DNA of 46,006 bases from a bacterium (GCA_050239825.1 JBFXGO010000017.1:1-46006), one strand, 5' to 3'; shown: positions 34,588 to 46,006, numbered from the stretch's first letter. Translations and numbers: made by a program. The notes: generated by a model not told the origin, from the sequence alone.

Positions 34588-37248
34588 TCACTTGCTGTTC
34601 TTTGTTATCTCGCTCTGGGCAGCGGCGAGTCTTGCGACAGGCACTCTGTAAGGCGAGCATGAAACATAATCGAATCCGTTGAGATTGAAGAAATCTATTG
34701 ATGCAGGGTCTCCGCCATGCTCTCCGCAGATTCCTATCTCAATATTGGGATTGACCTTCTTGGCATCTTCTATAGCTATTTTAATGAGACGACCCACTCC
34801 GATTTGATCGAGAGTGGCAAAAGGATCATCCTTAAGTATCTTCTGTTCAATGTAGGATTCAAGTATCTTTCCCACATCATCCCTTGAGAATCCGAGAGTC
34901 GTCTGTGTCAGGTCATTTGTCCCGAATGAGAAAAATTCTGCTTCTGTTGCTATCTCGCCTGCTGTCAGCGCCGCGCGGGGAAGCTCAATCATTGTGCCTA
35001 TCAGGCATTTTACATCCATCTTCTTCTCTTCAAGCACTCTCTTGATTGTCTCCACCGTAATTTTCTTCTGCGCCTGAAGCTCCTTTATGTTTCCCACAAG
35101 AGGTATCATTATCTCCGGAATAACCTTTATTCCCTGCTTTGAAACATTGCATGCGGCTTCCATAATTGCCCGCACCTGCATTTCGGTTATCTCAGGGAAA
35201 GTTATTCCGAGACGGCATCCGCGGTGTCCAAGCATCGGGTTTGCCTCTTTAAGTTCGTCTATCTTCTGCCTTATGTCGTCTGCCTTGACTCCCATCTTAG
35301 CCGCTATCTTCTTTATCATATCATCTTCCTTTGGAAGAAATTCATGAAGCGGCGGGTCAAGAGTTCTAATAACCACAGGATATCCATCCATTGCCTTGAA
35401 GATTCCTTCAAAGTCGCTTCTCTGCATGGGGAGTATTTCATCAAGAGCGGCCTTCCTGCCCTCTTTTGTCTCTGCGAGAATCATTCTTCTCACTGCCTCA
35501 ATTCTGTCCTCTCCGAAGAACATGTGCTCTGTCCTGCAGAGTCCGATGCCCTTTGCTCCGAATGTGCGAGCTGTCTGTGCGTCTGTCGGAGTGTCCGCAT
35601 TAGTGCGGATTTCAAGCCGCTTGAATTCGTCGGTAAACTCCATCAGCTTTCCGAATTCATTCCTCAAATCAGGCTTAATTTTTTCGACATTGCCTTCAAT
35701 GACTCTTCCGGTTGAGCCGTCTATTGTTATGAAATCGCCGTCTTTTATGACTTTGTCTTTCACTTTCATTATTCTCTTCTCGTCATCTATCTCAAGGTCA
35801 GAGCATCCGACCACGCACGGCTTTCCCATACCCCTCGCGACAACTGCCGCGTGAGATGTCATTCCGCCTCTTGCCGTCAGTATTCCGTTGCAGATATTCA
35901 TACCCGCAATGTCTTCAGGTGATGTCTCTTCTCTCACGAGAATCAGATTTTTTTCCACTTTTGCTTTTTCAACAGCCTCTTTTGCGGAGAATACGATTCT
36001 TCCCGATGCCGCTCCCGGCGATGCAGGCAGACCCTTTCCGAGCACTACAAGCTTCGCTTTCGGATTTATCATCGGATGAAGCATTCCGTCAATGTCCTTG
36101 GGAGTGACTCTTGTGACTGCCGTCTTCTTGTCTATTATTCCCTCTTCCTGAAGGTCAACGGCTATTCTTATTGAAGCGAGCGGAGTCCTCTTTCCGTTCC
36201 TCGTCTGAAGCATCCAGAGTTTTCCTCTCTCTATTGTAAACTCCATATCCTGCATGTCTTTATAGTGCGATTCAAGATGGTTCTTGTAGCCGTCAAGCTC
36301 CTTATATAGTTCGGGCATCACCGATTCAAGGGTAACCTGATTATCTGAATTTCTTGATTCATTGTTTATCGGCTGAGGAGTGCGAATTCCTGCAACAACA
36401 TCCTCACCCTGAGCATTGACAAGGTATTCTCCGTAGAAGTATTTTTCTCCGGTTGAAGGATTTCTTGTGAATGCCACTCCTGTGGCGCAGTCATTGCCCA
36501 TGTTTCCGAAGACCATTGACTGCACATTGACTGCAGTGCCCCAGTTATCTGGTATCTTCTCTATTCTTCTGTACTCTATGGCGCGCTCATTGTTCCATGA
36601 CCTAAAAACGGCATCGACCGCTCCCCAGAGCTGTTCTTCCACATTGTCAGGGAAATTCCTTCCCGCATCTTTCTTCACAAGTTCTTTATATTTCTTTATT
36701 AGTCCTTTAAGGTCTTCTGCATTGAGGTCAACATCCTGCACAACATTCTTATCCTTCTTTGTTTGCGTGAGAATCTCCTCAAAATGTTTGTGCTCAACAC
36801 CCATCACCACATCTCCATACATTTGAATGAATCTTCTGTATGAATCATAGGCGAACCTTTCATTGTTCGTAAGCTTCGCAAGCCCGACAACGGTTTTCTC
36901 GTTGAGTCCAAGATTGAGGATTGTGTCCATCATCCCGGGCATTGAAGCGGGCGCGCCCGAGCGCACTGACACGAGCAGAGGGTTCTGCTCCGATCCGAAC
37001 TCCTTTCCTATTGTCTTTTCAAGTTTCTTCAAATAATCATTGACAGCCTCTTTGAGCCCGTCAGGATATTTTGATTGATTCTTTGAGAAGTATGCGCATA
37101 CTTCAGTTGTTATAGTAAATCCGGGCGGAACCGGAAGGCCTAGTGATGCCATCTCCGCGAGATTGGCTCCTTTGCCTCCGAGAAGCATCTTCATCGACGC
37201 CTTACCCTCGGTGTTTCCTTTACCGAAGAAATAAACCATTTTATCCAT
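34588..37248 (-). CDS. ppdK: Pyruvate, phosphate dikinase
   Basis: LLGGKGANLAEM, PLLVSVRSGA, phospho-His RGGMTSHAAVVAR, GIGLCRTEHM, FSFGTNDLTQ, GICGEHGG. Confidence 0.98.
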   Translation of the reverse strand: MDKMVYFFGKGNTEGKASMKMLLGGKGANLAEMASLGLPVPPGFTITTEVCAYFSKNQSKYPDGLKEAVNDYLKKLEKTIGKEFGSEQNPLLVSVRSGAPASMPGMMDTILNLGLNEKTVVGLAKLTNNERFAYDSYRRFIQMYGDVVMGVEHKHFEEILTQTKKDKNVVQDVDLNAEDLKGLIKKYKELVKKDAGRNFPDNVEEQLWGAVDAVFRSWNNERAIEYRRIEKIPDNWGTAVNVQSMVFGNMGNDCATGVAFTRNPSTGEKYFYGEYLVNAQGEDVVAGIRTPQPINNESRNSDNQVTLESVMPELYKELDGYKNHLESHYKDMQDMEFTIERGKLWMLQTRNGKRTPLASIRIAVDLQEEGIIDKKTAVTRVTPKDIDGMLHPMINPKAKLVVLGKGLPASPGAASGRIVFSAKEAVEKAKVEKNLILVREETSPEDIAGMNICNGILTARGGMTSHAAVVARGMGKPCVVGCSDLEIDDEKRIMKVKDKVIKDGDFITIDGSTGRVIEGNVEKIKPDLRNEFGKLMEFTDEFKRLEIRTNADTPTDAQTARTFGAKGIGLCRTEHMFFGEDRIEAVRRMILAETKEGRKAALDEILPMQRSDFEGIFKAMDGYPVVIRTLDPPLHEFLPKEDDMIKKIAAKMGVKADDIRQKIDELKEANPMLGHRGCRLGITFPEITEMQVRAIMEAACNVSKQGIKVIPEIMIPLVGNIKELQAQKKITVETIKRVLEEKKMDVKCLIGTMIELPRAALTAGEIATEAEFFSFGTNDLTQTTLGFSRDDVGKILESYIEQKILKDDPFATLDQIGVGRLIKIAIEDAKKVNPNIEIGICGEHGGDPASIDFFNLNGFDYVSCSPYRVPVARLAAAQSEITKNSK

Positions 37249-37429
37249 TAACTACCTCCTATTGATAGCAATATAGCTTTTTATTTTATTATAAATTCAG
37301 ATAAAAATCAAGAAGAATATAAATAATTGCTAACAGGTAAAGCAAGTTGCGGGTTAAAAAACAATCAATAGTCCAAATATCGCTGGTGGTTAGCAAAAAT
37401 CGCATACGCAAGAGTAAATGAGAAAAGTA

Positions 37430-37722
37430 TGGATGGGGTGTTATTGCTATAATGGTTATTTGATTTTTCTCAGGACCATGGTAGAAAAATATTCTGTAAG
37501 CACCGGGGTCTTATTCTGTGTGTAACACTCAAATTCCTTTTCATTGCCAGGACCTATTATCGATTTATAAAGATGAGTGTGAAGCCCCGAGTGTTTTGGG
37601 TCATCAGAGAGATGTTTTAAAGCTTTCCGAACTGCTTTCCAGGCTTTTTCTTTGCTCCCCTCTCTTTTTATTTTTTTTAAATTATTTATCGCCTCTGATG
37701 TGAAAACAAGTTCAAAATTCAT
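37430..37722 (-). pseudogene. Frameshifted RelE/ParE-like toxin
   Basis: FELVFTSEA...DPKHSGLHTH...YTQNKTP continues in another frame, after one missing base at ~37503-37509, as GAYRIFFYHGPEKNQITIIAITPHP, a typical RelE-fold C-terminus. Confidence 0.75.
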
Positions 37723-38042
37723 AATTCATCAAAGAATTTATCAAGGTCTTTTGCTTTCTTTGTTTTGCCGTTCTTGGCGTCTATTAGCCCTTTTTTCACC
37801 TTTGAATAAACTTCGGGATTCTCATATACCCACATCTCATCAAGAGGAATGGACACAGTCGGTTTTAAGAGAACTTCGCCTTTTCTATTCATCTTAATCT
37901 GCACAGAATCAGTCTTTCCGAGTCTTTCCCAATACTGCAACACCTTAGGCGGAAGAGTGATTCTGTTTCTGCCATCAGGTTTTTTGTTGTCTATGTCTAT
38001 GAATTCATTTGCGTGAGATTTTGATTCATTTGTCTCTTTCAT
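37719..38042 (-). CDS. AbrB/MazE-like antitoxin
   Basis: DGRNRITLP...GEVLLKP swapped-hairpin pattern, acidic tail DLDKFFDEL; ATGA overlap with the toxin; SD AAGGAG. Confidence 0.75.
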   Translation of the reverse strand: MKETNESKSHANEFIDIDNKKPDGRNRITLPPKVLQYWERLGKTDSVQIKMNRKGEVLLKPTVSIPLDEMWVYENPEVYSKVKKGLIDAKNGKTKKAKDLDKFFDEL

Positions 38043-38060
38043 AATTGCTCCTTTTCTTTC

Positions 38061-38088
38061 AATATACCCATTTTCCCATTTGTGTCAA
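38061..38088 (-). promoter_or_regulatory. TA promoter with direct-repeat operator candidate
   Basis: TTGACA-16 nt-TATATT; the spacer contains AAATGGG twice. Confidence 0.55.
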
Positions 38089-38169
38089 GATTCTTGATTT
38101 GTACCTTTGTGAGGTAAAATTACGATTTACAGATTGAAAAAGAACACCATGTGCAAAATGCAATTATAT

Positions 38170-38195
38170 GTAGGAGCGATTCACAAATTGCCCTC
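38170..38195 (+). repeat. Degenerate GTAG-family REP-like sequence
   Basis: GTAG-GAGCGATT-CACA-AATTGCCC: GTAG tetranucleotide followed by an imperfect palindrome. Confidence 0.45.
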
Positions 38196-38313
38196 ATGGT
38201 CATCAATGAAATTGAAAAAGTTAAAAGAAATCAGATATGCCGTTCGTGAGTGGAATAAACGTTTCTTATGAAAAATGTCAAAATGTCAAGCACCGTCCCC
38301 ATTTCCATTTCCA

Positions 38314-39231
38314 TTACTCTCCATCTCTATTAAATGTTTTTTTAAAGAATATCTCTCCAGCTTTGTTCTTAACGACAACTTCCAAGCCGTCGAATGATAC
38401 AAAATCTCCATTTACATTCCGATTAATTGAATCTTCGGAAATTTCTCCTGTAACGGTCCATCGTTCCGACTCGTTATCAATCTGAAGATTTATATACATA
38501 CCCCCTGTCATTCCTCGAAATTGAAGATCAAGCTTACTATCATCAAATACATCTTTTGTAACAAAAACGTTAGACCAGTCTTCTAAACCGTAATTTATTA
38601 AATCTTCATCAGTCAAAAAGACAATTTTATCACTATCGCCCAAAACAATTTCATACAATGTATTATCACAACGGTAAATAAATCTTTCCCTTTCAAAATC
38701 AACATAGCATAATCCATCGTTGTAATGGTAAATAGTATCTACCATGCTTATCATTTCACATAATGTATCTCCAATGTTTTGCTTCATGATTATATTCACC
38801 GTTGGACCTAAGAGGAAACTGGTGGTTGAACCATAGATATACTTGGCATTTGAATCAATGAAACTGTAATCGCCTAAATTCTCCATTTTTAGCATTTCGC
38901 CACTTTCATTACTATAGATAAATAGCGATTCATACGACTGTATAGTATAATATTCACCTATACTTTGTGGATTATATAATATATCATCATGATACAATAT
39001 CTCTTTGCAGGTGTTATTATATGGGTTTATTCGAAATACTTTACACGGAATATACTCGTAATAATCAGCATACAAAACAATATTAAATTCATTCTCATTA
39101 ATCCACCTCGGATTTCCTGCAGTAAAATAATTCAAATGATCCACATCGTGAAAAATCAGTTCACCAAGTTCACAGTTGCTTGTGAATAGAAGAATGAAAA
39201 TACATATCAATATGATACTATTGTTTTTCAT
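38314..39231 (-). CDS. Hypothetical lipoprotein-like beta-rich protein
   Basis: ATG 39231 after GGAG; MKNNSIILICIFILLFTSNC resembles a lipoprotein signal; AT-rich. Confidence 0.65.
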   Translation of the reverse strand: MKNNSIILICIFILLFTSNCELGELIFHDVDHLNYFTAGNPRWINENEFNIVLYADYYEYIPCKVFRINPYNNTCKEILYHDDILYNPQSIGEYYTIQSYESLFIYSNESGEMLKMENLGDYSFIDSNAKYIYGSTTSFLLGPTVNIIMKQNIGDTLCEMISMVDTIYHYNDGLCYVDFERERFIYRCDNTLYEIVLGDSDKIVFLTDEDLINYGLEDWSNVFVTKDVFDDSKLDLQFRGMTGGMYINLQIDNESERWTVTGEISEDSINRNVNGDFVSFDGLEVVVKNKAGEIFFKKTFNRDGE

Positions 39232-39420
39232 TTTACTCTCCTTAAATATATTATTATATTTCCTTCGTTTTTTCCCATTCATCCCGACTTTTATTTAAAG
39301 ATTTATTATATTTCAATAATTTAAATCAAAATTAATCTTACTAAATCTATTCTTTTTTGTCAATACTTAATTGGTTGTTGGTATTGTTTTAATCATTTTA
39401 CAATCAAATAATGGTCTTTT

Positions 39421-39572
39421 TTTCTTCAACTATCAACTTTCTTTTACCAGCTCACTAGCGTACCAGCCTACTAGCCTACTCTTTTTCTTTCTTCAACTAT
39501 CAACTTTCTTTTACCAGCTCATCAGCGTACCAGCCTACTAGCCTACTCTTTTTCTTTCTTCAACTATCAACT
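39421..39572. repeat. 67-bp tandem repeat (2 full copies + partial) with 7- and 8-bp sub-repeats
   Basis: TTTCTTCAACTATCAACT starts at 39421, 39488 and 39555; the internal ACCAGCTC-ACTAGCGT-ACCAGCCT-ACTAGCCT has an 8-bp period. Confidence 0.92.
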
Positions 39573-39600: not shown

Positions 39601-39971
39601 AGGGAGTATAATAAAAGTTGTGTAAAAATATTAGGAGTGGTATATAATAAGATTAACTAGAAGGAGATATTGAACCGAATAATGTACCCTAATGCCAAAA
39701 GACAGTTGTGTTTGGTTCATCTCCTCAGAAATGCAAGAAAAAACTTCTCCCTCGAACACATTCGACAGCAAAAGGGCGGATTCTTCCAATCCGAAGATAT
39801 CCTCTTCATAAACATTTATATCCGTTACCTAAATATGTTACCTAAATGGAAAAACGGTTACCCTAAAATCATTGCTAAATTATATTACCTCCGCCAATCC
39901 TTCGTTAATCTCTCTGGAGAACTCCCCTATGAATACTAATCCCTCTTTACACAACTTCCTTGACAAGTCTC
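39601..39971 (+). mobile_element. Internally deleted IS256-family element (non-autonomous relic)
   Basis: Imperfect TIRs share AAGTTGTGTAAA (39615-39626 and its reverse complement at 39946-39957). ORF 39670-39939 fuses YPNAKRQLCLVHLLRN (IS256 C-x2-H motif) to the C-terminal GGFFQSE; DDE core missing. Confidence 0.8.
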
Positions 39972-39972
39972 G

Positions 39973-40011
39973 AAATCTCAAATGTCAAGAACTGTTAGAG
40001 ACACCACACTA
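39973..40011 (+). mobile_element. Orphan right end of an IS630-family element
   Basis: 37 bp (39973-40009) are the exact reverse complement of 45829-45865 and are followed by TA within CTAG, the IS630-type target. Confidence 0.8.
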
Positions 40012-40240
40012 GAATAGAAATAAAAATATTCAAAATTGTGGCAATAGTCATAATTAATGTCATTGTTTTAATTTGCTTTGTGTAATCAAACATTATTTTC
40101 TCATGATCTTCTCTATCACGTCGTTCAATTTCATTCAACCAATAACTGATTCCTACCATTGTTTTTTGGGAAACAATATCATGATTTTTTACAAGTTCAT
40201 CTTTTGTCATTTTCCTAAGATCAGCATATAATTTTGACAT
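39995..40240 (-). CDS. Small protein with C-terminal TM helix, unknown function
   Basis: SD AGGAG + ATG; hydrophobic C-terminus; the last codons and TAA lie inside the IS630 end. Confidence 0.7.
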   Translation of the reverse strand: MSKLYADLRKMTKDELVKNHDIVSQKTMVGISYWLNEIERRDREDHEKIMFDYTKQIKTMTLIMTIATILNIFISILVWCL

Positions 40241-40285
40241 TATACTCTCCTATGTTTTTTGATATTGAGATTAGAATATTTAATT

Positions 40286-41026
40286 CTATTTACCTGCATA
40301 GGAATTAATCACTTTAGATTCAAAAGGATATTCATTATAGACTTTTCCTTCAAGCAGTTTTCCTGTTTTATGTTTGTTGAATCCGCCCCATTGCTTGAAG
40401 AAGAAAGGAATACCCTTATTTTCGCATAAATCCCTCAATTTCAGCACCCACTCTTCTTTTATAGGCCTTGCACCTGCTCCTGATTCTCCGCCTACAATTA
40501 CCCAATCAATTCCGGAGAGAGAGACTCTTCCAATTGGTCCGAGAAGAGGTTCAAATGAGATAAATTTCAGTTTGGCATCTGTCTTCTTTAAATCATTTAT
40601 CCGGTAAATGTATTCGTCCGACTCTACTGTTACGCCCATCCAGATATTTTTTGACCAATTAAGCTTGTCATTCACTTCGAGCAGTCTTTCTGATCTTTTT
40701 GTCAGTATCTGAAACTGAATATGTTCGCAGTCAATCATCACTTTAAATACCTTCTTTATATAACTCAGAGGAATGTCTTTGTGGAATAAATCAGACATTG
40801 AATTTACAAATACCTTTCTTGGAGTTTTCCAAGAGTATGGCACTTTTAGCGCATCAGGTTGAAGTGTCACTTTGAAAGCGTTCTTATACTGTTTTACTCC
40901 CATCAGTTGAAGTCTATAAGCGAATTTCTCGGCATAGCAATTCATACATCCGGGGCTTACTTTTGTGCAACCTGTAACAGGATTCCAGCTCATCTCAGTC
41001 CATTCAATTTTCGTTTTTCCTGACAT
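40286..41026 (-). CDS. DUF5131 / phage Gp37-Gp68 family protein (three-Cys, radical-SAM-like)
   Basis: TKIEWTEMSWNPVTGCTKVSPGCMNCYA (Cx6Cx2C), FVNSMSDLFH, FQILTKR, SFEPLLG, WVIVGGESG, PFFFKQWGG. Confidence 0.93.
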   Translation of the reverse strand: MSGKTKIEWTEMSWNPVTGCTKVSPGCMNCYAEKFAYRLQLMGVKQYKNAFKVTLQPDALKVPYSWKTPRKVFVNSMSDLFHKDIPLSYIKKVFKVMIDCEHIQFQILTKRSERLLEVNDKLNWSKNIWMGVTVESDEYIYRINDLKKTDAKLKFISFEPLLGPIGRVSLSGIDWVIVGGESGAGARPIKEEWVLKLRDLCENKGIPFFFKQWGGFNKHKTGKLLEGKVYNEYPFESKVINSYAGK

Positions 41027-41029
41027 TTA

Positions 41030-41896
41030 TTACCTTTTTTCCATATTTGTTATCAAGTCTTGAGCAATATTTATTGCAGTTCCTGCTCCTTTTTTGTTAC
41101 CTGCTGCAAAACAAAGCGAGTAAATTGGACTATTTTTACTATTATATAGTATTTTTGGTTTTTCAACAACCCCCGTAAATTCCTTTTTCAATTTTCCAGT
41201 TAAATATGAATTTACAAAATCAGAATCAACTACTCTTTCATACTTTTCACTTTCTCCAAATAAAGTAAGCTGTTTCTCAACTTTATAGAATTGCTTCTCC
41301 CACTCATTATCGCCGAATAATTCATTTAATTTATTTCTATTGCCCTCCTCAATGTCACCATCCTTCTTTAAAAGGCGCATCGTTCCAACACCGAGAGGAA
41401 ACAGATACCACATATCAATTGCCTGAGTTTTTGCTATAGCTTTTATTGTTTCCCACTGAACTTGCATTCCATATGGGTCAAGAAACAATACTGCTCTATA
41501 TTTTTCCCAGTCGTAATTTTTACATATATCAGATACTATATTATTCGCATCACCTTTTATAATTTCAGATGATATTTTGTATTTTTTTATCTCCTCCTCA
41601 AGGGCGTCACAAAGAGTTGAATCTTTTTCAATAAAAATATATTTATCAAATTTGTTTTCTAGTTCGATTGCTTTCATTACTGATCCCTTTGAATACTCCT
41701 GGAACTCTTCATCGAAAAGATTCTTATCCTCTAGTTCATTATATATTTTGCCACATCCCGCAAATGCATCAATGTAGATGGTTTTAAAATAACTTGCCCT
41801 TGAGTTGTTTTTGAATATTTGCATGTATGCGTTTAGGTACTTTTCAATTATCACTAGTTTTTGTTGAGTCCAGGCTCCTCCCCAAGATTGGCTCAT
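41030..41896 (-). CDS. tcmP: Three-Cys-motif partner protein TcmP (SAM-dependent amino-methyltransferase-like fold)
   Basis: WGGAWT..KL, YIDAFAGCG (motif I), FIEKD, GDAN, LFLDPYG (motif IV-like); 3 nt upstream of the DUF5131 gene. Confidence 0.88.
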   Translation of the reverse strand: MSQSWGGAWTQQKLVIIEKYLNAYMQIFKNNSRASYFKTIYIDAFAGCGKIYNELEDKNLFDEEFQEYSKGSVMKAIELENKFDKYIFIEKDSTLCDALEEEIKKYKISSEIIKGDANNIVSDICKNYDWEKYRAVLFLDPYGMQVQWETIKAIAKTQAIDMWYLFPLGVGTMRLLKKDGDIEEGNRNKLNELFGDNEWEKQFYKVEKQLTLFGESEKYERVVDSDFVNSYLTGKLKKEFTGVVEKPKILYNSKNSPIYSLCFAAGNKKGAGTAINIAQDLITNMEKR

Positions 41897-42034
41897 TTTA
41901 AACTCCTTTGGTTAAGAGACAATTCTTAAATCCATTTTAATATAATCAAAAAGCAAAAAGATCTTTCTTCTCCAATCTATTCTAATAGTTTAAATTGCTT
42001 TTATCTGCAGTCTTAATTGGATTTGTATTGTATA

Positions 42035-42412
42035 TTATAATTTCAATTTTCCTAAATATTTGTCTTTCTCCTTATCTTCGTCTATCTTTTCTTGTTTTTG
42101 CCTCTCTTGGTTTATTTGATTTCTCTTGTCTTGTTCATTCCGTTCTTTATTTGTTAGCTCAATTGCCTTCTTTAAAAATTGAATATGATATTTTTCAATC
42201 TCATCTAATGGAGAGTGAATAATCAAATAATTATTTTCAATCCATGCTTTTCTCTTCATTGAATACCATATTTGACTCCAAATTATTTTAAATATTTCCA
42301 TCCATATTTGATCTGGAGTTTCAGTTAGTTCAATATAAACATTATAAAGAGCATAATTCTTGTCTGGATTAAATGTTTTAATTTTGTCAATAGACTTCAA
42401 TTCAATATTCAT
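42035..42412 (-). CDS. Hypothetical protein with charged coiled-coil tail
   Basis: 125-aa ORF overlapping the upstream stop (ATGA), SD AAGGAG. Confidence 0.75.
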   Translation of the reverse strand: MNIELKSIDKIKTFNPDKNYALYNVYIELTETPDQIWMEIFKIIWSQIWYSMKRKAWIENNYLIIHSPLDEIEKYHIQFLKKAIELTNKERNEQDKRNQINQERQKQEKIDEDKEKDKYLGKLKL

Positions 42413-43686
42413 TTTTTCTCCTTTTTAAATAGCTCTTCAAATACCTTTTTCCTAATATCTGATAGCTTAGGTAAGGTATGATTCCTATTGGGATAAATAT
42501 CCAAAGGCAAATATAATTTTGATTCATTTATTAATTCTAATTCATCATCTATATGCTTTAAAACATATTTTTTAAACTCACTTCTATCAGATATGCATGT
42601 TATGATATGGTATAAATTCCATTTTCGTTGAAGAGATCTTTCATTCTTTTTGTCAAAATTTGCTTCATACTCTGCCCAGCAAATTAGATAAAATATCCAT
42701 TTATACATAATGTCTTTTATTATTTCGTCTTTTGATTCATTGGCATTCAATACATAATCATTAATAATTTCTTGATATATATTACTACTTATATCACTGA
42801 CAGTTTTTTCTTCTTTTACTTTACTTAGAATAGTATATATGAATACAGGAATATAAAGTTTTATGTCAACTAAATCACGTCTTTTCTCATCTGGTTTAAA
42901 CCTGCTATTTTCTTGAATAAACACCTGCAGATTTTCAGCTATCTTTTTTTCAATACCATCGTCAATCATTTTACAGTTATTGCTAAATAAATCCATCAAA
43001 TGAATTTTTAATAATTCTGCATTTTTGTATTCTTTACATGAGCTGATTTCCTTTAAATATAATTCCATAAGGTCATAAAACTTTAAATAATATTTTCTTC
43101 CAATGCAGGTTCTAATTGACGATATTATTGGATGTATCAATACATTTTGACATTCATAGAGATTACATTGTTCAGAAACATTCCTAAACAATGCTGAAAG
43201 CGAATCTAATGCTTCCTTATACTGTTTTGAGATAAAATCATCGCCGCGTTCTATGTAGGACTCATAAAAGTAACCTGGTAAGATAAAGTTCTTTTTCATC
43301 CATATTTCATTTGAATCAACCTCATAAATGCACTTAGTCAGGGTTATTTCATCAATTTTAAAGTTAAGTATTTCCCAGATAGTAATACCTATTAATGCAA
43401 ACACTAACGCTGAAATACATTTAAAATAAATACCTAAAATATTACTATTACAACCATCTATCGAAATCAGTAATATAAACACAATATAAATCTCTATTGA
43501 TATTATTAACAATGAAATGATTCTGTTATAAAAATGCATTCTACTAAATATCAATTGTCGAAGCATTGGATAATATTGTGATTCTTTCTTATAAAAAGCA
43601 TATGAAACATATATAACAGGAAAAAATGTAAACACAAATATCAATATTAATTGAGAAATACCAATTATTTCATTCGATTTTAGCAT
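42409..43686 (-). CDS. Hypothetical membrane protein (3 N-terminal TM helices + helical domain)
   Basis: 425-aa open frame in very AT-rich DNA; hydrophobic segments in the first ~110 aa. Confidence 0.75.
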   Translation of the reverse strand: MLKSNEIIGISQLILIFVFTFFPVIYVSYAFYKKESQYYPMLRQLIFSRMHFYNRIISLLIISIEIYIVFILLISIDGCNSNILGIYFKCISALVFALIGITIWEILNFKIDEITLTKCIYEVDSNEIWMKKNFILPGYFYESYIERGDDFISKQYKEALDSLSALFRNVSEQCNLYECQNVLIHPIISSIRTCIGRKYYLKFYDLMELYLKEISSCKEYKNAELLKIHLMDLFSNNCKMIDDGIEKKIAENLQVFIQENSRFKPDEKRRDLVDIKLYIPVFIYTILSKVKEEKTVSDISSNIYQEIINDYVLNANESKDEIIKDIMYKWIFYLICWAEYEANFDKKNERSLQRKWNLYHIITCISDRSEFKKYVLKHIDDELELINESKLYLPLDIYPNRNHTLPKLSDIRKKVFEELFKKEKK

Positions 43687-43817
43687 ATTTTTATAGTTTC
43701 CTTTATCACACTAATCACTTTACAATAATGTTGGATTTCGTCAGAGGAAAGGATGTTGCCCTTACGGTCTTTGAGCCATTTGTTGAGAACTGTATTAACA
43801 CTTAATAAATGACTCAT
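43680..43817 (-). pseudogene. 45-codon relic resembling the C-terminus of Type ISP-like restriction-modification enzymes
   Basis: My translation: MSHLLSVNTVLNKWLKDRKGNILSSDEIQHYCKVISVIKETIKIC*. The VL.KWLKDRKG..L...EI.HY.K pattern is recognised from memory. Confidence 0.6.
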
Positions 43818-43822
43818 ATTTT

Positions 43823-44728
43823 TTAGGTTGTTTTTGCAAATAATTCGCCTTGCTTCAGAAAACTATCTAATCGTGAATTTGCTAACTCAATATATTTGAG
43901 ATCAGTTTCATAGCCAATATATTTTCTTTCTGCTTTTACTGCAGCTAACGCTGTTGTTCCACTTCCAATAAATGGGTCTAGAACAATATCACCTTTAAAT
44001 GAATAAAGATGAATTAATCTCTTTGGCAACTCTTCAGGAAATGGAGCCGGATGACCCACTCTCTTTGCGCTTTCAGCGTTCATCGTCCAGATTGATTTTG
44101 TCCACTCCATGAATTGCTCTTTAGTTATAGAGTTTTCCTTTTTAAAAGAATCCCGTTTTAACTTACCCTTTGAAAAAACTAAGATATATTCATGAACATC
44201 TCTCAATATTGGATTAGCGGCACTTAACCAACTTCCCCATGCAGTTGAAGGGCTAGCACTTGCTGCTTTATTCCAAATAATTTCGCCTCTCATATTGAAT
44301 CCTATTTCATTCATCATTTGCGATATATAATCACTCAGAGGAATATATGGTCGTCTCCCCAGGTTTGCTACATTGATGCATGCTCTTCCTCCATCTATTA
44401 ATACTCTATAAGTTTCAATAAAAACTGTTCTTAAGAATGTAAGATACTCCTTTAAAGATAAGTCTTTATCATATTCTTTTGTTACATTATAAGGAGGAGA
44501 AGTAATCATTAAATGAATAGAGTTATCCTTTAATTGATACATTTTTTCGGAAGAAGTGTTATAAATGACATTTGCATTTCCTATATCAATAGTATTTTCA
44601 CACTTATTTTTGGATTCAACAAGATCAATCTCACTATATAATTTAGAATTATAGAATTTTGTTGAATCATGATTTATTCTTCCACTTGTTCCAAAACTAC
44701 TTGTTTGCGTTCCATTTTTTTTATTCAT
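43823..44728 (-). CDS. Site-specific DNA methyltransferase, beta class (likely N4-cytosine)
   Basis: ITSPPYN (motif IV) precedes HPAPFP and VLDPFIGSGTT (motif I). Confidence 0.93.
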   Translation of the reverse strand: MNKKNGTQTSSFGTSGRINHDSTKFYNSKLYSEIDLVESKNKCENTIDIGNANVIYNTSSEKMYQLKDNSIHLMITSPPYNVTKEYDKDLSLKEYLTFLRTVFIETYRVLIDGGRACINVANLGRRPYIPLSDYISQMMNEIGFNMRGEIIWNKAASASPSTAWGSWLSAANPILRDVHEYILVFSKGKLKRDSFKKENSITKEQFMEWTKSIWTMNAESAKRVGHPAPFPEELPKRLIHLYSFKGDIVLDPFIGSGTTALAAVKAERKYIGYETDLKYIELANSRLDSFLKQGELFAKTT

Positions 44729-44733
44729 GATTT

Positions 44734-45588
44734 TTAATCCAATAAAGATAGGAATTTTTCCGCTTTACTTATTAAATCGGTTTCCAAATTTGATATTTGA
44801 ATAATTTCTCCCAGTCTCTTTTTTGAAATCATTGATGAAAAATAGTTAAGTTCTGCAGTTAATAGACTAAAAATCCAATCTTTTAGATTCTTATAATCCG
44901 AGTAAGTTCTAAAACCTTTTTGGGGAGTTTCTATAATATACGGTGAAGTAGTCGGATTTTGATTCATACTAATAAATCCTTGAATTACTCCAGAAGATTT
45001 CAATAGATCAACTTTTTCAGAATAATTTTCTGTGATAGGACTATTCCCAACTATTATTATTGGTATTTTTCTTGCGTTGTTGCATGATATCCTTATATTT
45101 AAGGATTTTCCTATAGCTTTTAATATAGAATCGGAGCGTAGCAAAGACGGATTTCCTTTGTGAGATTTATAATCACCGATGTTTTCTATTTTTTTTGAAT
45201 CTAATTCAAATTTATAATTTGACACTATACTCATTTTTATTTCAACTATTAATTTAATGTTTTCAGCTGTTTGATTAATTGAATTAGTTGAACAAAAGGC
45301 CAAATCCGCTGGAGATTTTGAAGTGAGTTCTAATTCTTCACATTGAACACCATTTAAAGCAAATAATTTCAATTCAGATGCTATTGGAGTAAATATTTCT
45401 TTACACCATTTCTCGGTGTAACTACCTATTAATGAGTTTCTGCTTTGAAGCACCTGATTTTCGGAACCTTCACCCTTGGGAATATATGCATAATAACCTG
45501 AATTTAAACGGTAAAATAATTGCTCAGGTGAAGAAAAATTTTTTAACGCTTGTTTAAAAAAGTCTATTTCGTTTTTGTTAGTCCACAT
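44734..45588 (-). CDS. Putative type II restriction endonuclease (PD-(D/E)xK)
   Basis: IGSYTEKW...PADLAF...IVEIKMS; 5 nt upstream of the MTase. Likely start ATG 45588, below a TTGAAT-17-TATAAT promoter. Confidence 0.75.
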   Translation of the reverse strand: MWTNKNEIDFFKQALKNFSSPEQLFYRLNSGYYAYIPKGEGSENQVLQSRNSLIGSYTEKWCKEIFTPIASELKLFALNGVQCEELELTSKSPADLAFCSTNSINQTAENIKLIVEIKMSIVSNYKFELDSKKIENIGDYKSHKGNPSLLRSDSILKAIGKSLNIRISCNNARKIPIIIVGNSPITENYSEKVDLLKSSGVIQGFISMNQNPTTSPYIIETPQKGFRTYSDYKNLKDWIFSLLTAELNYFSSMISKKRLGEIIQISNLETDLISKAEKFLSLLD

Positions 45589-45828
45589 TTTTTCTCTTTT
45601 TATTAAGATTATACACAAAATTCATCAGGGATTCAATATTTCTAACATTTTTTCTTTTTTCATATTTTCCTTGCACTTCCTCCTGAATAGGTCTTCAAAA
45701 TTCTATCTACATATTTTGAAAGCATAATTAATTATAAACCTTTATTCATATTAAATCAAGTTATGTGAATACAATTGATGTGTATTAAATTTTCTATGGT
45801 CTTCTCGTTATATTTTTATCATCAACTG

Positions 45829-46006
45829 GTGTGGTGTCTCTAACAGTTCTTGACATTTGAGATTTTTTTAAGGATAGATTTGACAGAGGCTGTCCAGATA
45901 AAGACTTTTGGGTTTTGATTATGGTTATCGATATACTTGTTAATTGTATTTATAAGCTCTTTGAGGTTTTTGAATGAGCCTCGGCGTATCCTTTTACAGG
46001 TGATTT
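45829..46006 (-). mobile_element. 3' end of an IS630-family element, continuing beyond the window
   Basis: Minus frame 46004-45840 reads ITCKRIRRGSFKNLKELINTINKYIDNHNQNPKVFIWTASVKSILKKI..., the RIRRGSF...HN..PK.F.WT C-terminus of IS630 transposases, and ends in the 37-bp terminal sequence. Confidence 0.85.

Follow-up and report, generated by a model that had tools for sequence, protein, structure and literature searches.

The right end of a bacterial contig of 46,006 nucleotides (nt) (GCA_050239825.1 JBFXGO010000017.1:1-46006, analysed whole and hereafter called the window) raises the question of what a closely spaced pair of genes, coding for a TcmP-type methyltransferase and a DUF5131 protein, might do together, and whether the gene for a small membrane protein behind them takes part. 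A prediction made from the sequence alone (the original prediction) had described the three as a candidate DNA-modification or anti-phage module, and its reading frames, motifs, common orientation and gaps (3 nt from TcmP to DUF5131 and 45 nt from DUF5131 to the gene for a protein of 81 amino acids, aa) were all as claimed, on the minus strand. The pairing, which it had regarded as a recognised family association, is indeed catalogued as PDC-M41 in PADLOC, and the locus is an ordinary copy of that candidate. The question was narrowed to a methyltransferase with an intact site of the RlmJ type, an obligate radical S-adenosylmethionine (SAM) partner of the lyase clade, with fusions of the two, and a clamp-type motif pointing to newly replicated DNA. 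A nucleic-acid target and a role in conflict are likeliest for the pair, for which we infer base hypermodification.

The TcmP protein matched TIGR04474 at 192.9 bits (cut-off 53) and PDC-M41A over its whole length (E 1.6e-107), M41A being the best match and M30A giving none; as expected of TIGR04474 members, its gene neighbours that of a three-Cys-motif protein. Structure prediction and profile comparison of both proteins, which had been proposed as a check, led to RlmJ, the 23S rRNA m6A2030 methyltransferase, for TcmP and to spore photoproduct lyase for DUF5131. The TcmP model (predicted local distance difference test, pLDDT, 89.8) has a Rossmann methyltransferase fold, for which RlmJ was ranked first by Foldseek; an unfiltered fold search returned a Legionella RlmJ homologue (Z 15.2, root-mean-square deviation, rmsd, 3.8, 206 residues aligned), Trm1 (Z 14.4) and E. 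coli RlmJ (Z 13.2). A profile of 53 diverse TcmPs searched against all Protein Data Bank (PDB) sequences gave matches at E < 0.01 only to RlmJ entries (E 3.7e-7) and the Legionella homologue, and hhalign (94%; 23% with a narrower TcmP profile) placed D140-P141 on RlmJ D164-P165 and G71-S72 on G99-S100, in addition to motifs I-III and VI. A search of three genomes yielded no RlmJ homologues from which to build a profile on that side as well, and the single E. coli RlmJ sequence was used there. The hidden Markov model (HMM) of the RlmJ family, PF04378, gave no match to the TcmP of the window at E ≤ 0.1, the homology being visible by profile only.

The sites recognised in TcmP were K13, D43-x-F-A-G-x-G49 (DAFAGCG, residues 43-49), G71-S72, E90, D116, D140-P141 (within DPYG, residues 140-143) and W163. 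Across 67 TcmP clusters (below 70% identity, from 106 sequences of at least 240 aa), K13, D43, G49, D140 and P141 were invariant, position 90 was Glu or Asp in all 67, and position 163 was Trp or Phe in 56. According to the consulted part of PMC3814359, D164 and K18 are essential in RlmJ, whose site resembles that of DNA m6A methyltransferases, the base being stacked on W195 and not on the motif IV Tyr. Because of the RlmJ-like fold, the aligned motifs and the invariant catalytic positions, TcmP is, judging from model and alignment, most likely an active amino-methyltransferase, and the SAM-dependent transferase of the original prediction is borne out as an amino-methyltransferase fold with an intact active site. 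The family comprises 4504 clusters, its longer members bear a winged-helix domain (PF22560), and the nearest homologues outside the genus were 43-54% identical for TcmP vs. 57-69% for DUF5131.

The DUF5131 protein matched PF07505 at 319.2 bits (cut-off 28.9) and PDC-M41B over its whole length (E 3.2e-114). Its model (pLDDT 89.5) shows a partial TIM barrel whose first strand is followed by three Cys, and the nearest fold was that of spore photoproduct lyase (Z 14.3, rmsd 2.9, 196 residues aligned), followed by viperin (Z 11.2), with all of ranks 1-21 of the search being radical-SAM enzymes. The canonical C-x3-C-x2-C of these enzymes is absent, and in its place stands the triad C20-x6-C27-x2-C30, invariant in 123 of 123 aligned sequences. 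In the consulted part of RadicalSAM.org, DUF5131 is megacluster 5-2 and the lyase is listed alongside in 5-3. Fold, triad and listing together uphold the claim of a non-canonical radical-SAM enzyme in a family of at least 8000 clusters. The likeness to the lyase was by fold only: the lyase HMM PF20903 did not match the DUF5131 of the window, and a DUF5131 profile found nothing below E 0.5 among PDB sequences.

The tight coupling of the two families that had been claimed was found wherever it could be evaluated. In 28 of 272 genomes of the phylum, 29 loci exceeded the TIGR04474 cut-off, four of which were cut by contig ends; a radical-SAM partner was present at 25 of the 25 others, as DUF5131 (15 loci), as a separate lyase-type enzyme (2 loci) or fused to TcmP (8 loci), and lyase-type enzymes stood in for DUF5131 at 6 of the 25. 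Among the best 80 of 95 viral TcmP loci from IMG/VR, a kin-rich set with 55 clusters at 90% and 13 at 70% identity, a partner was found in 79 (77 by profile, 2 by inspection) and the remaining locus was cut. The partner was of a C-x3-C-x3-C type in 15 of the 77 viral loci. The distribution of TcmP was patchy and its flanks varied. In the fusions, single chains of 585-704 aa that are good candidates for biochemistry (L109, L110, L111, L112, L117, L118, L119 and L120), TcmP is joined to a radical-SAM domain of the lyase type or of another type. Complex prediction gave 0.34 for TcmP with DUF5131 vs. 0.00 for the best control, with at least 67% of contacts agreeing between runs and a partner pLDDT of at least 81. 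Of 157 solved pairs, 116 reached the mark used, as did 2 of 215 mismatched ones; at values ≤ 0.60 only 18 solved pairs and both mismatches did so, and a pass at 0.34 belongs to the range in which wrong calls outnumber right ones unless contact is likely beforehand. Since single-chain fusions exist, contact is likely beforehand, and the predicted complex lends weak support to it. Two further arrangements were observed. A genome of the phylum (G029, L007:2903-8795) carries a longer cassette with all genes in one direction, in which TcmP is accompanied by further genes and by two radical-SAM genes, one B12-type and one lyase-type, and on Sinorhizobium meliloti pSymA (L203:2322-8142) hna is followed by an M41-type TcmP facing an operon of DUF5131 and a winged-helix TcmP; in a table of PMC12445080, hna and the pSymA TcmP are both about twofold up in nolR+ cells.

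A further feature of TcmP is the word QLTLF (residues 209-213) at the tip of a β-hairpin in the model (strands E204-211 and E214-221), which we take to fit a sliding-clamp-binding consensus of the type QL[S/D]LF. The motif was first spotted in the TcmP of the window, and the search patterns were then set from that consensus. Words resembling QxxLF occurred in the loop at 196-225 in 18 of 67 TcmP homologues, compared with 0-2 in each of 17 other windows of 30 residues. A strict clamp pattern was found in 12 of 67 TcmPs vs. 0.8 in shuffled sequences (maximum 5) and in 19 of 122 close homologues vs. 2.0 (maximum 6), while the controls gave 1 of 123 DUF5131 proteins and 6 of 655 genome ORFs (open reading frames) of similar size. 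Among 1325 long ORFs, QL[SDT]LF was present in this TcmP alone, and several winged-helix TcmPs carry QxxLF-like words directly before the winged-helix domain. The neighbouring type II methyltransferase also ends in a clamp-motif-like stretch, QGELF (window 43823-43860).

From the folds, the residues, the coupling and the motif, we propose a reading that is tentative and to which we would give somewhat less than an even chance, namely that a methyltransferase held on the sliding clamp and a lyase-like radical enzyme successively alter a base in newly replicated DNA, as part of a conflict of self and non-self. TcmP and DUF5131 would form a mobile two-gene unit working at the replication fork. 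With its RlmJ-type Lys/Asp site, SAM-bound TcmP would methylate a base at the exocyclic amine, most likely N6 of adenine, and the QLTLF loop would dock on the β sliding clamp, directing the enzyme to newly made DNA. Bound DUF5131 with a 4Fe-4S cluster would then cleave SAM to a 5'-deoxyadenosyl radical, which may take a hydrogen from a flipped or freshly methylated base, like spore photoproduct lyase acting on DNA, leaving a base modification beyond simple methylation. The mark would shield the carrier's DNA or tag that of an invader, with TcmP, the variable half, probably giving specificity, and the 81-aa gene, the adjacent restriction-modification (R-M) pair and the insertion sequence (IS) ends would be co-travellers and not components. 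If true, cells and prophages would have a post-replicative chemistry of DNA bases that is new. A bolder version, possible and somewhat less probable, is a widespread replisome-coupled marking system in which a clamp-borne methyltransferase of rRNA-enzyme ancestry hands a base to the radical enzyme to make a new DNA base, the 81-aa protein being a stand-alone single-gene defence factor; it would parallel restriction-modification by means of radical chemistry, the TcmPs serving as specificity subunits that can be exchanged.

A number of observations weigh against clamp-directed modification of DNA. In the consulted part of PMC3814359, RlmJ methylates rRNA and is without activity on single-stranded DNA. 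Motif IV of TcmP is D-P-Y/F-G, with one proline, in most of the 67 clusters, and not D-P-P-Y, and K13 is invariant but lies outside the stretch aligned with RlmJ, one helical turn further from motif I, so that its equivalence with RlmJ K18 is something we infer. Because Gln at the -3 position is rare (only 21 of 116 close homologues), while [LMI]F is kept in 116 of 122 and LF-Gly in 105, the loop could bind a partner or DNA rather than the clamp. The original prediction had also proposed to look for enrichment near defence genes, and a defence gene was found within three ORFs of TcmP at 11 of the 29 phylum loci, which speaks for a role in conflict. That count was made from 62 selected proteins and with no background rate; the other 18 loci had none, and several loci lie among housekeeping genes. 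The literature, with subscription journals largely beyond the search, showed no activity, substrate or phenotype for the pair; in their consulted parts, the Ophion preprint deals with a viperin-related enzyme and PMC10853773 with Dnd systems.

Gene layout also counts on that side and bears on a second explanation, unlikely in our judgement, in which DUF5131 is a toxin and TcmP its guard. Clamp-loaded DNA of the invader or the host would receive radical lesions from DUF5131 (cross-links, breaks or base loss), and TcmP would hold DUF5131 in check either through direct binding or through methylation of self sites. Rather than forming one operon, the two genes converge with overlapping 3' ends in 52 of 77 viral loci (L123-L202, IMG/VR), which is more in keeping with separate control of each than with a fixed 1:1 pathway. 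Likewise, in Gordonia phage ThankyouJordi a TcmP-like gene follows the immunity repressor on the same strand with DUF5131 facing it, and there are two TcmPs per radical-SAM gene in 5 viral loci, where they precede the partner, and on pSymA beside hna. Such a guarded toxin is hard to reconcile with the 8 of 25 phylum loci that hold both halves in one chain, and with the occurrence of DUF5131, commoner than TcmP (41 vs. 28 of the 272 phylum genomes, itself a point against the two-step pathway), in genomes without a TcmP match, a state not expected of a toxin, although a divergent TcmP can be missed. Counts from tblastn of phage records (TcmP 2, DUF5131 181) were given no weight as evidence of DUF5131 standing alone, since the TcmP query misses divergent TcmP-like genes.

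Somewhat less probable again is DNA repair, with the lyase-like subunit reversing a base lesion at the fork and TcmP acting as a clamp-bound lesion reader. The nearest fold of DUF5131 is a repair enzyme, TcmP carries the clamp-type motif, many TcmP copies lie among housekeeping genes, and in one phylum genome (G023) the pair follows apparent mutagenic polymerase genes (read by eye), yet the invariant methyltransferase catalytic positions speak against repair, and the patchy mobile spread and very variable TcmP suit conflict more. Modification of RNA, begun by TcmP through adenine methylation in tRNA, rRNA or phage transcripts and finished by the radical enzyme, we consider slightly less probable than repair: RlmJ is the closest relative of TcmP by sequence and by fold, with Trm1 second by fold (Z 14.4) and viperin second for DUF5131, whereas the winged-helix fusions, the clamp-type motif, the kinship with the lyase and the R-M neighbours all indicate DNA.

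The remaining explanation includes the 81-aa protein, which had been predicted to be a membrane effector of the pair. A single hydrophobic helix lies at its C-terminal end (residues 62-80, with a Kyte-Doolittle 19-mer maximum of 2.37), and its gene has a ribosome-binding site. The left IS end overlaps the gene and provides its final five codons and stop, and despite this the tail length equals the family median of 14 residues. A word-based homologue search found only the protein itself, and HMMER (E ≤ 0.001) gathered a family of single-helix membrane proteins of about 80 aa, with 328 clusters at 50% identity. Neither Pfam, NCBIfam nor PHROG gave the protein a family, and its one PADLOC match was weak (E 0.0098); a Pfam scan of 101 members gave no common family, and the Atlas clusters were without names.

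Members of this family stood beside the pair at 2 of the 29 phylum loci, both of one genus and one of them a stub of 16 codons, at none of the 27 phylum loci outside the genus and at none of the 80 viral loci. The stub is in a sister species (G001), where the pair is intact (70% and 84% identical) and the flanks are different: DUF5131 is directly followed by the start of the small gene, namely its ribosome-binding site and 16 codons (11 codons identical, 3 synonymous and 2 changed relative to the window), and then by an apparent transposase remnant (read by eye). Because this stub is kept at the same place, the trio was inherited together once, and the sister species lost the small gene and kept the pair. 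A metagenome pattern scan gave 50 loci, 42 of which were confirmed by profile, and 34 contexts of the family were assembled from metagenome loci, one viral and one phylum locus (median locus 3.6 kb). No TcmP, DUF5131 or radical-SAM neighbour was seen in 33 of the 34, and in the other (L091) a TcmP lies 1.2 kb from the family gene on the opposite strand. The only other phylum genomes with the family, G029 (gene whole) and G023 (gene broken), both have TcmP, against 26 of 270 expected in a sample of two, with the two genes on different contigs; in 401 genomes of another phylum no member was found. A three-gene system, in which sensing or signalling by the pair would act through the membrane protein as effector, is therefore very improbable, since the retained start in the sister species, the co-occurrence in G029 and G023 and the TcmP of L091 are set against 0 of 80 viral and 0 of 27 non-genus loci, 33 of 34 unaccompanied contexts (at the median length given), a small gene destroyed beside an intact pair, and separate contigs in both genomes. 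On the counts beside the pair, the gene was rejected as a conserved third component. A defence-type neighbour (TIR with caspase, type I R-M, AbiE with HEPN, PIN, PD-(D/E)XK and others) lay within 2.5 kb in 12 of the 34 contexts, and four more held a terminase, integrase or transposase, giving 16 of 34 with defence or mobile genes in all; eight chance-match loci had housekeeping surroundings, with short partial PADLOC matches in three. Our preferred reading of the gene is that of a passenger in defence islands, possibly with a stand-alone defence activity of its own. The effector lead is thereby removed, and an unnamed family of small membrane proteins worth a test of its own is brought to light.

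Table 1. Features of the locus, with positions counted from the first letter of the window.
Feature	Position	Strand	Basis
TcmP (PDC-M41A type), 288 aa	41030..41896	-	TIGR04474, PDC-M41A, structure model, conservation
QLTLF, TcmP residues 209-213, sliding-clamp-binding-type motif at β-hairpin tip	41258..41272	-	secondary structure, positional enrichment
DUF5131 / Gp37-Gp68 radical-SAM-type protein, 246 aa	40286..41026	-	PF07505, PDC-M41B, fold search
81-aa single-helix membrane protein, probably a passenger	39995..40240	-	family of 328 clusters
Left edge of the unit: truncated end (40 nt) of an IS630-type element	39973..40012	-	inverted repeat, multicopy end
End of the same IS630-type element, inverted, running off the contig, right edge	45826..46006	+	
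N6/N4 DNA methyltransferase of the type II R-M pair, neighbour only	43823..44728	-	PF01555, MTase_II
Restriction-endonuclease-like gene, neighbour only	44734..45618	-	ESM Atlas; 80% identical copy in G001
Two genes between the R-M pair and TcmP (125 aa, soluble; 425 aa)	42035..43686	-	
Multicopy 370-base repeat, IS256-type transposase remnant, abutting the left IS end	39602..39971	.	

The pair lies in a unit (39973-45865) that had been described as an IS-bounded island, and both of its edges carry the same end of a multicopy element, in opposite orientations, as a 40-nt inverted repeat that is 98% complementary, with 7 copies of the end in the genome. The copy of the element on contig C8 codes for HTH and DDE_3 transposase pieces, and we take the element to be of the IS630 type from the traits of that group, DDE_3 transposases with TA targets. 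The GC content of the unit was 26-35% per kb vs. 39.8% for the genome. The 370-base repeat next to the left end has full-length copies on C44, C18 and C24 and gave weak matches to PF00872 and NF033543, below cut-off. The gene ppdK was found in five of five relatives searched, and in all five the DNA likeness to the window ends at about 37250-37330; therefore, everything rightward is accessory. Mobilisation of the unit as a composite transposon was not supported, the left IS copy being a 40-nt stub that cuts into the small gene and no contig with an empty site at these edges having been found. In X1, probably the source sequencing run, 39983-45855 formed one contig at depth 15.6, with 37000-39312 at 21.2; the join runs through repeats, so the connection with ppdK may be insecure, or else the unit may vary in the population, and sequencing depth gives no share of cells. 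No tRNA gene was found in the window, and a promoter scan gave 28 sites vs. 35 expected by chance; one site matching 11 of 12 σ70-like positions (40204-40232, plus strand) lies inside the small gene, antisense into DUF5131, and is not above chance for the region. Further to the left, two small overlapping genes (37456-38042) look like a RelE/ParE-type toxin (weak PF05016 match, E 0.065) and an antitoxin, and about 2.3 tandem copies of a 67-nt repeat (39415-39572) have relatives on several other contigs.

Upstream of the pair and on the same strand lie the two R-M genes, the methyltransferase matching PF01555 (E 6.5e-51) and MTase_II of PADLOC (E 2.4e-122), and the restriction-endonuclease-like gene having an ESM Atlas feature score of 0.98 and no Pfam or PADLOC match. 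The co-orientation with an R-M pair that had been noted is real, but two genes intervene; the product of the longer (425 aa) has three N-terminal hydrophobic helices, and the shorter (125 aa) precedes TcmP on a contig of 1917 bases in run X2 but does not do so in the sister species. There, a copy of the R-M pair (80-91% identical) is on contig C112, with no TcmP in the 3.9 kb read, and the single TcmP of the genome is on another contig. Given this unlinked state, a functional tie to restriction-modification is not supported; the R-M pair is a neighbour, not a component.

Among known systems, the pair corresponds to PDC-M41 of PADLOC (A, TcmP, TIGR04474; B, DUF5131, PF07505), both halves of which are matched, adjacent and co-oriented, and it differs from the sister system PDC-M30 in that M30-type TcmPs have a winged-helix tail, which the TcmP of the window is without. 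The 145 PDC candidates are stated to be awaiting experimental test (Payne et al., bioRxiv 10.1101/2024.01.29.577857), the main text of that preprint naming neither M41 nor M30. With RlmJ, TcmP shares the fold (Z 13.2-15.2) and motifs I, GS, II, III, IV (DP) and VI, whereas it is only 12-13% identical, has D-P-Y-G instead of D-P-P-Y, is without the RlmJ helical insert, adds the hairpin with the clamp-type motif and is in every case accompanied by a radical-SAM partner. Spore photoproduct lyase (SplB), with the MJ0683/COG1533-like radical-SAM clade, offers the nearest fold to DUF5131 and includes the enzymes that replace it beside TcmP; in contrast to SplB, DUF5131 has C-x6-C-x2-C instead of C-x3-C-x2-C, is 11% identical and is without the N-terminal 70 residues of the lyase. 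As in type II R-M systems, TcmP is a mobile, swappable amino-methyltransferase near nucleases, but its partner is a radical enzyme and not a nuclease, and the neighbouring R-M system has a methyltransferase of its own.

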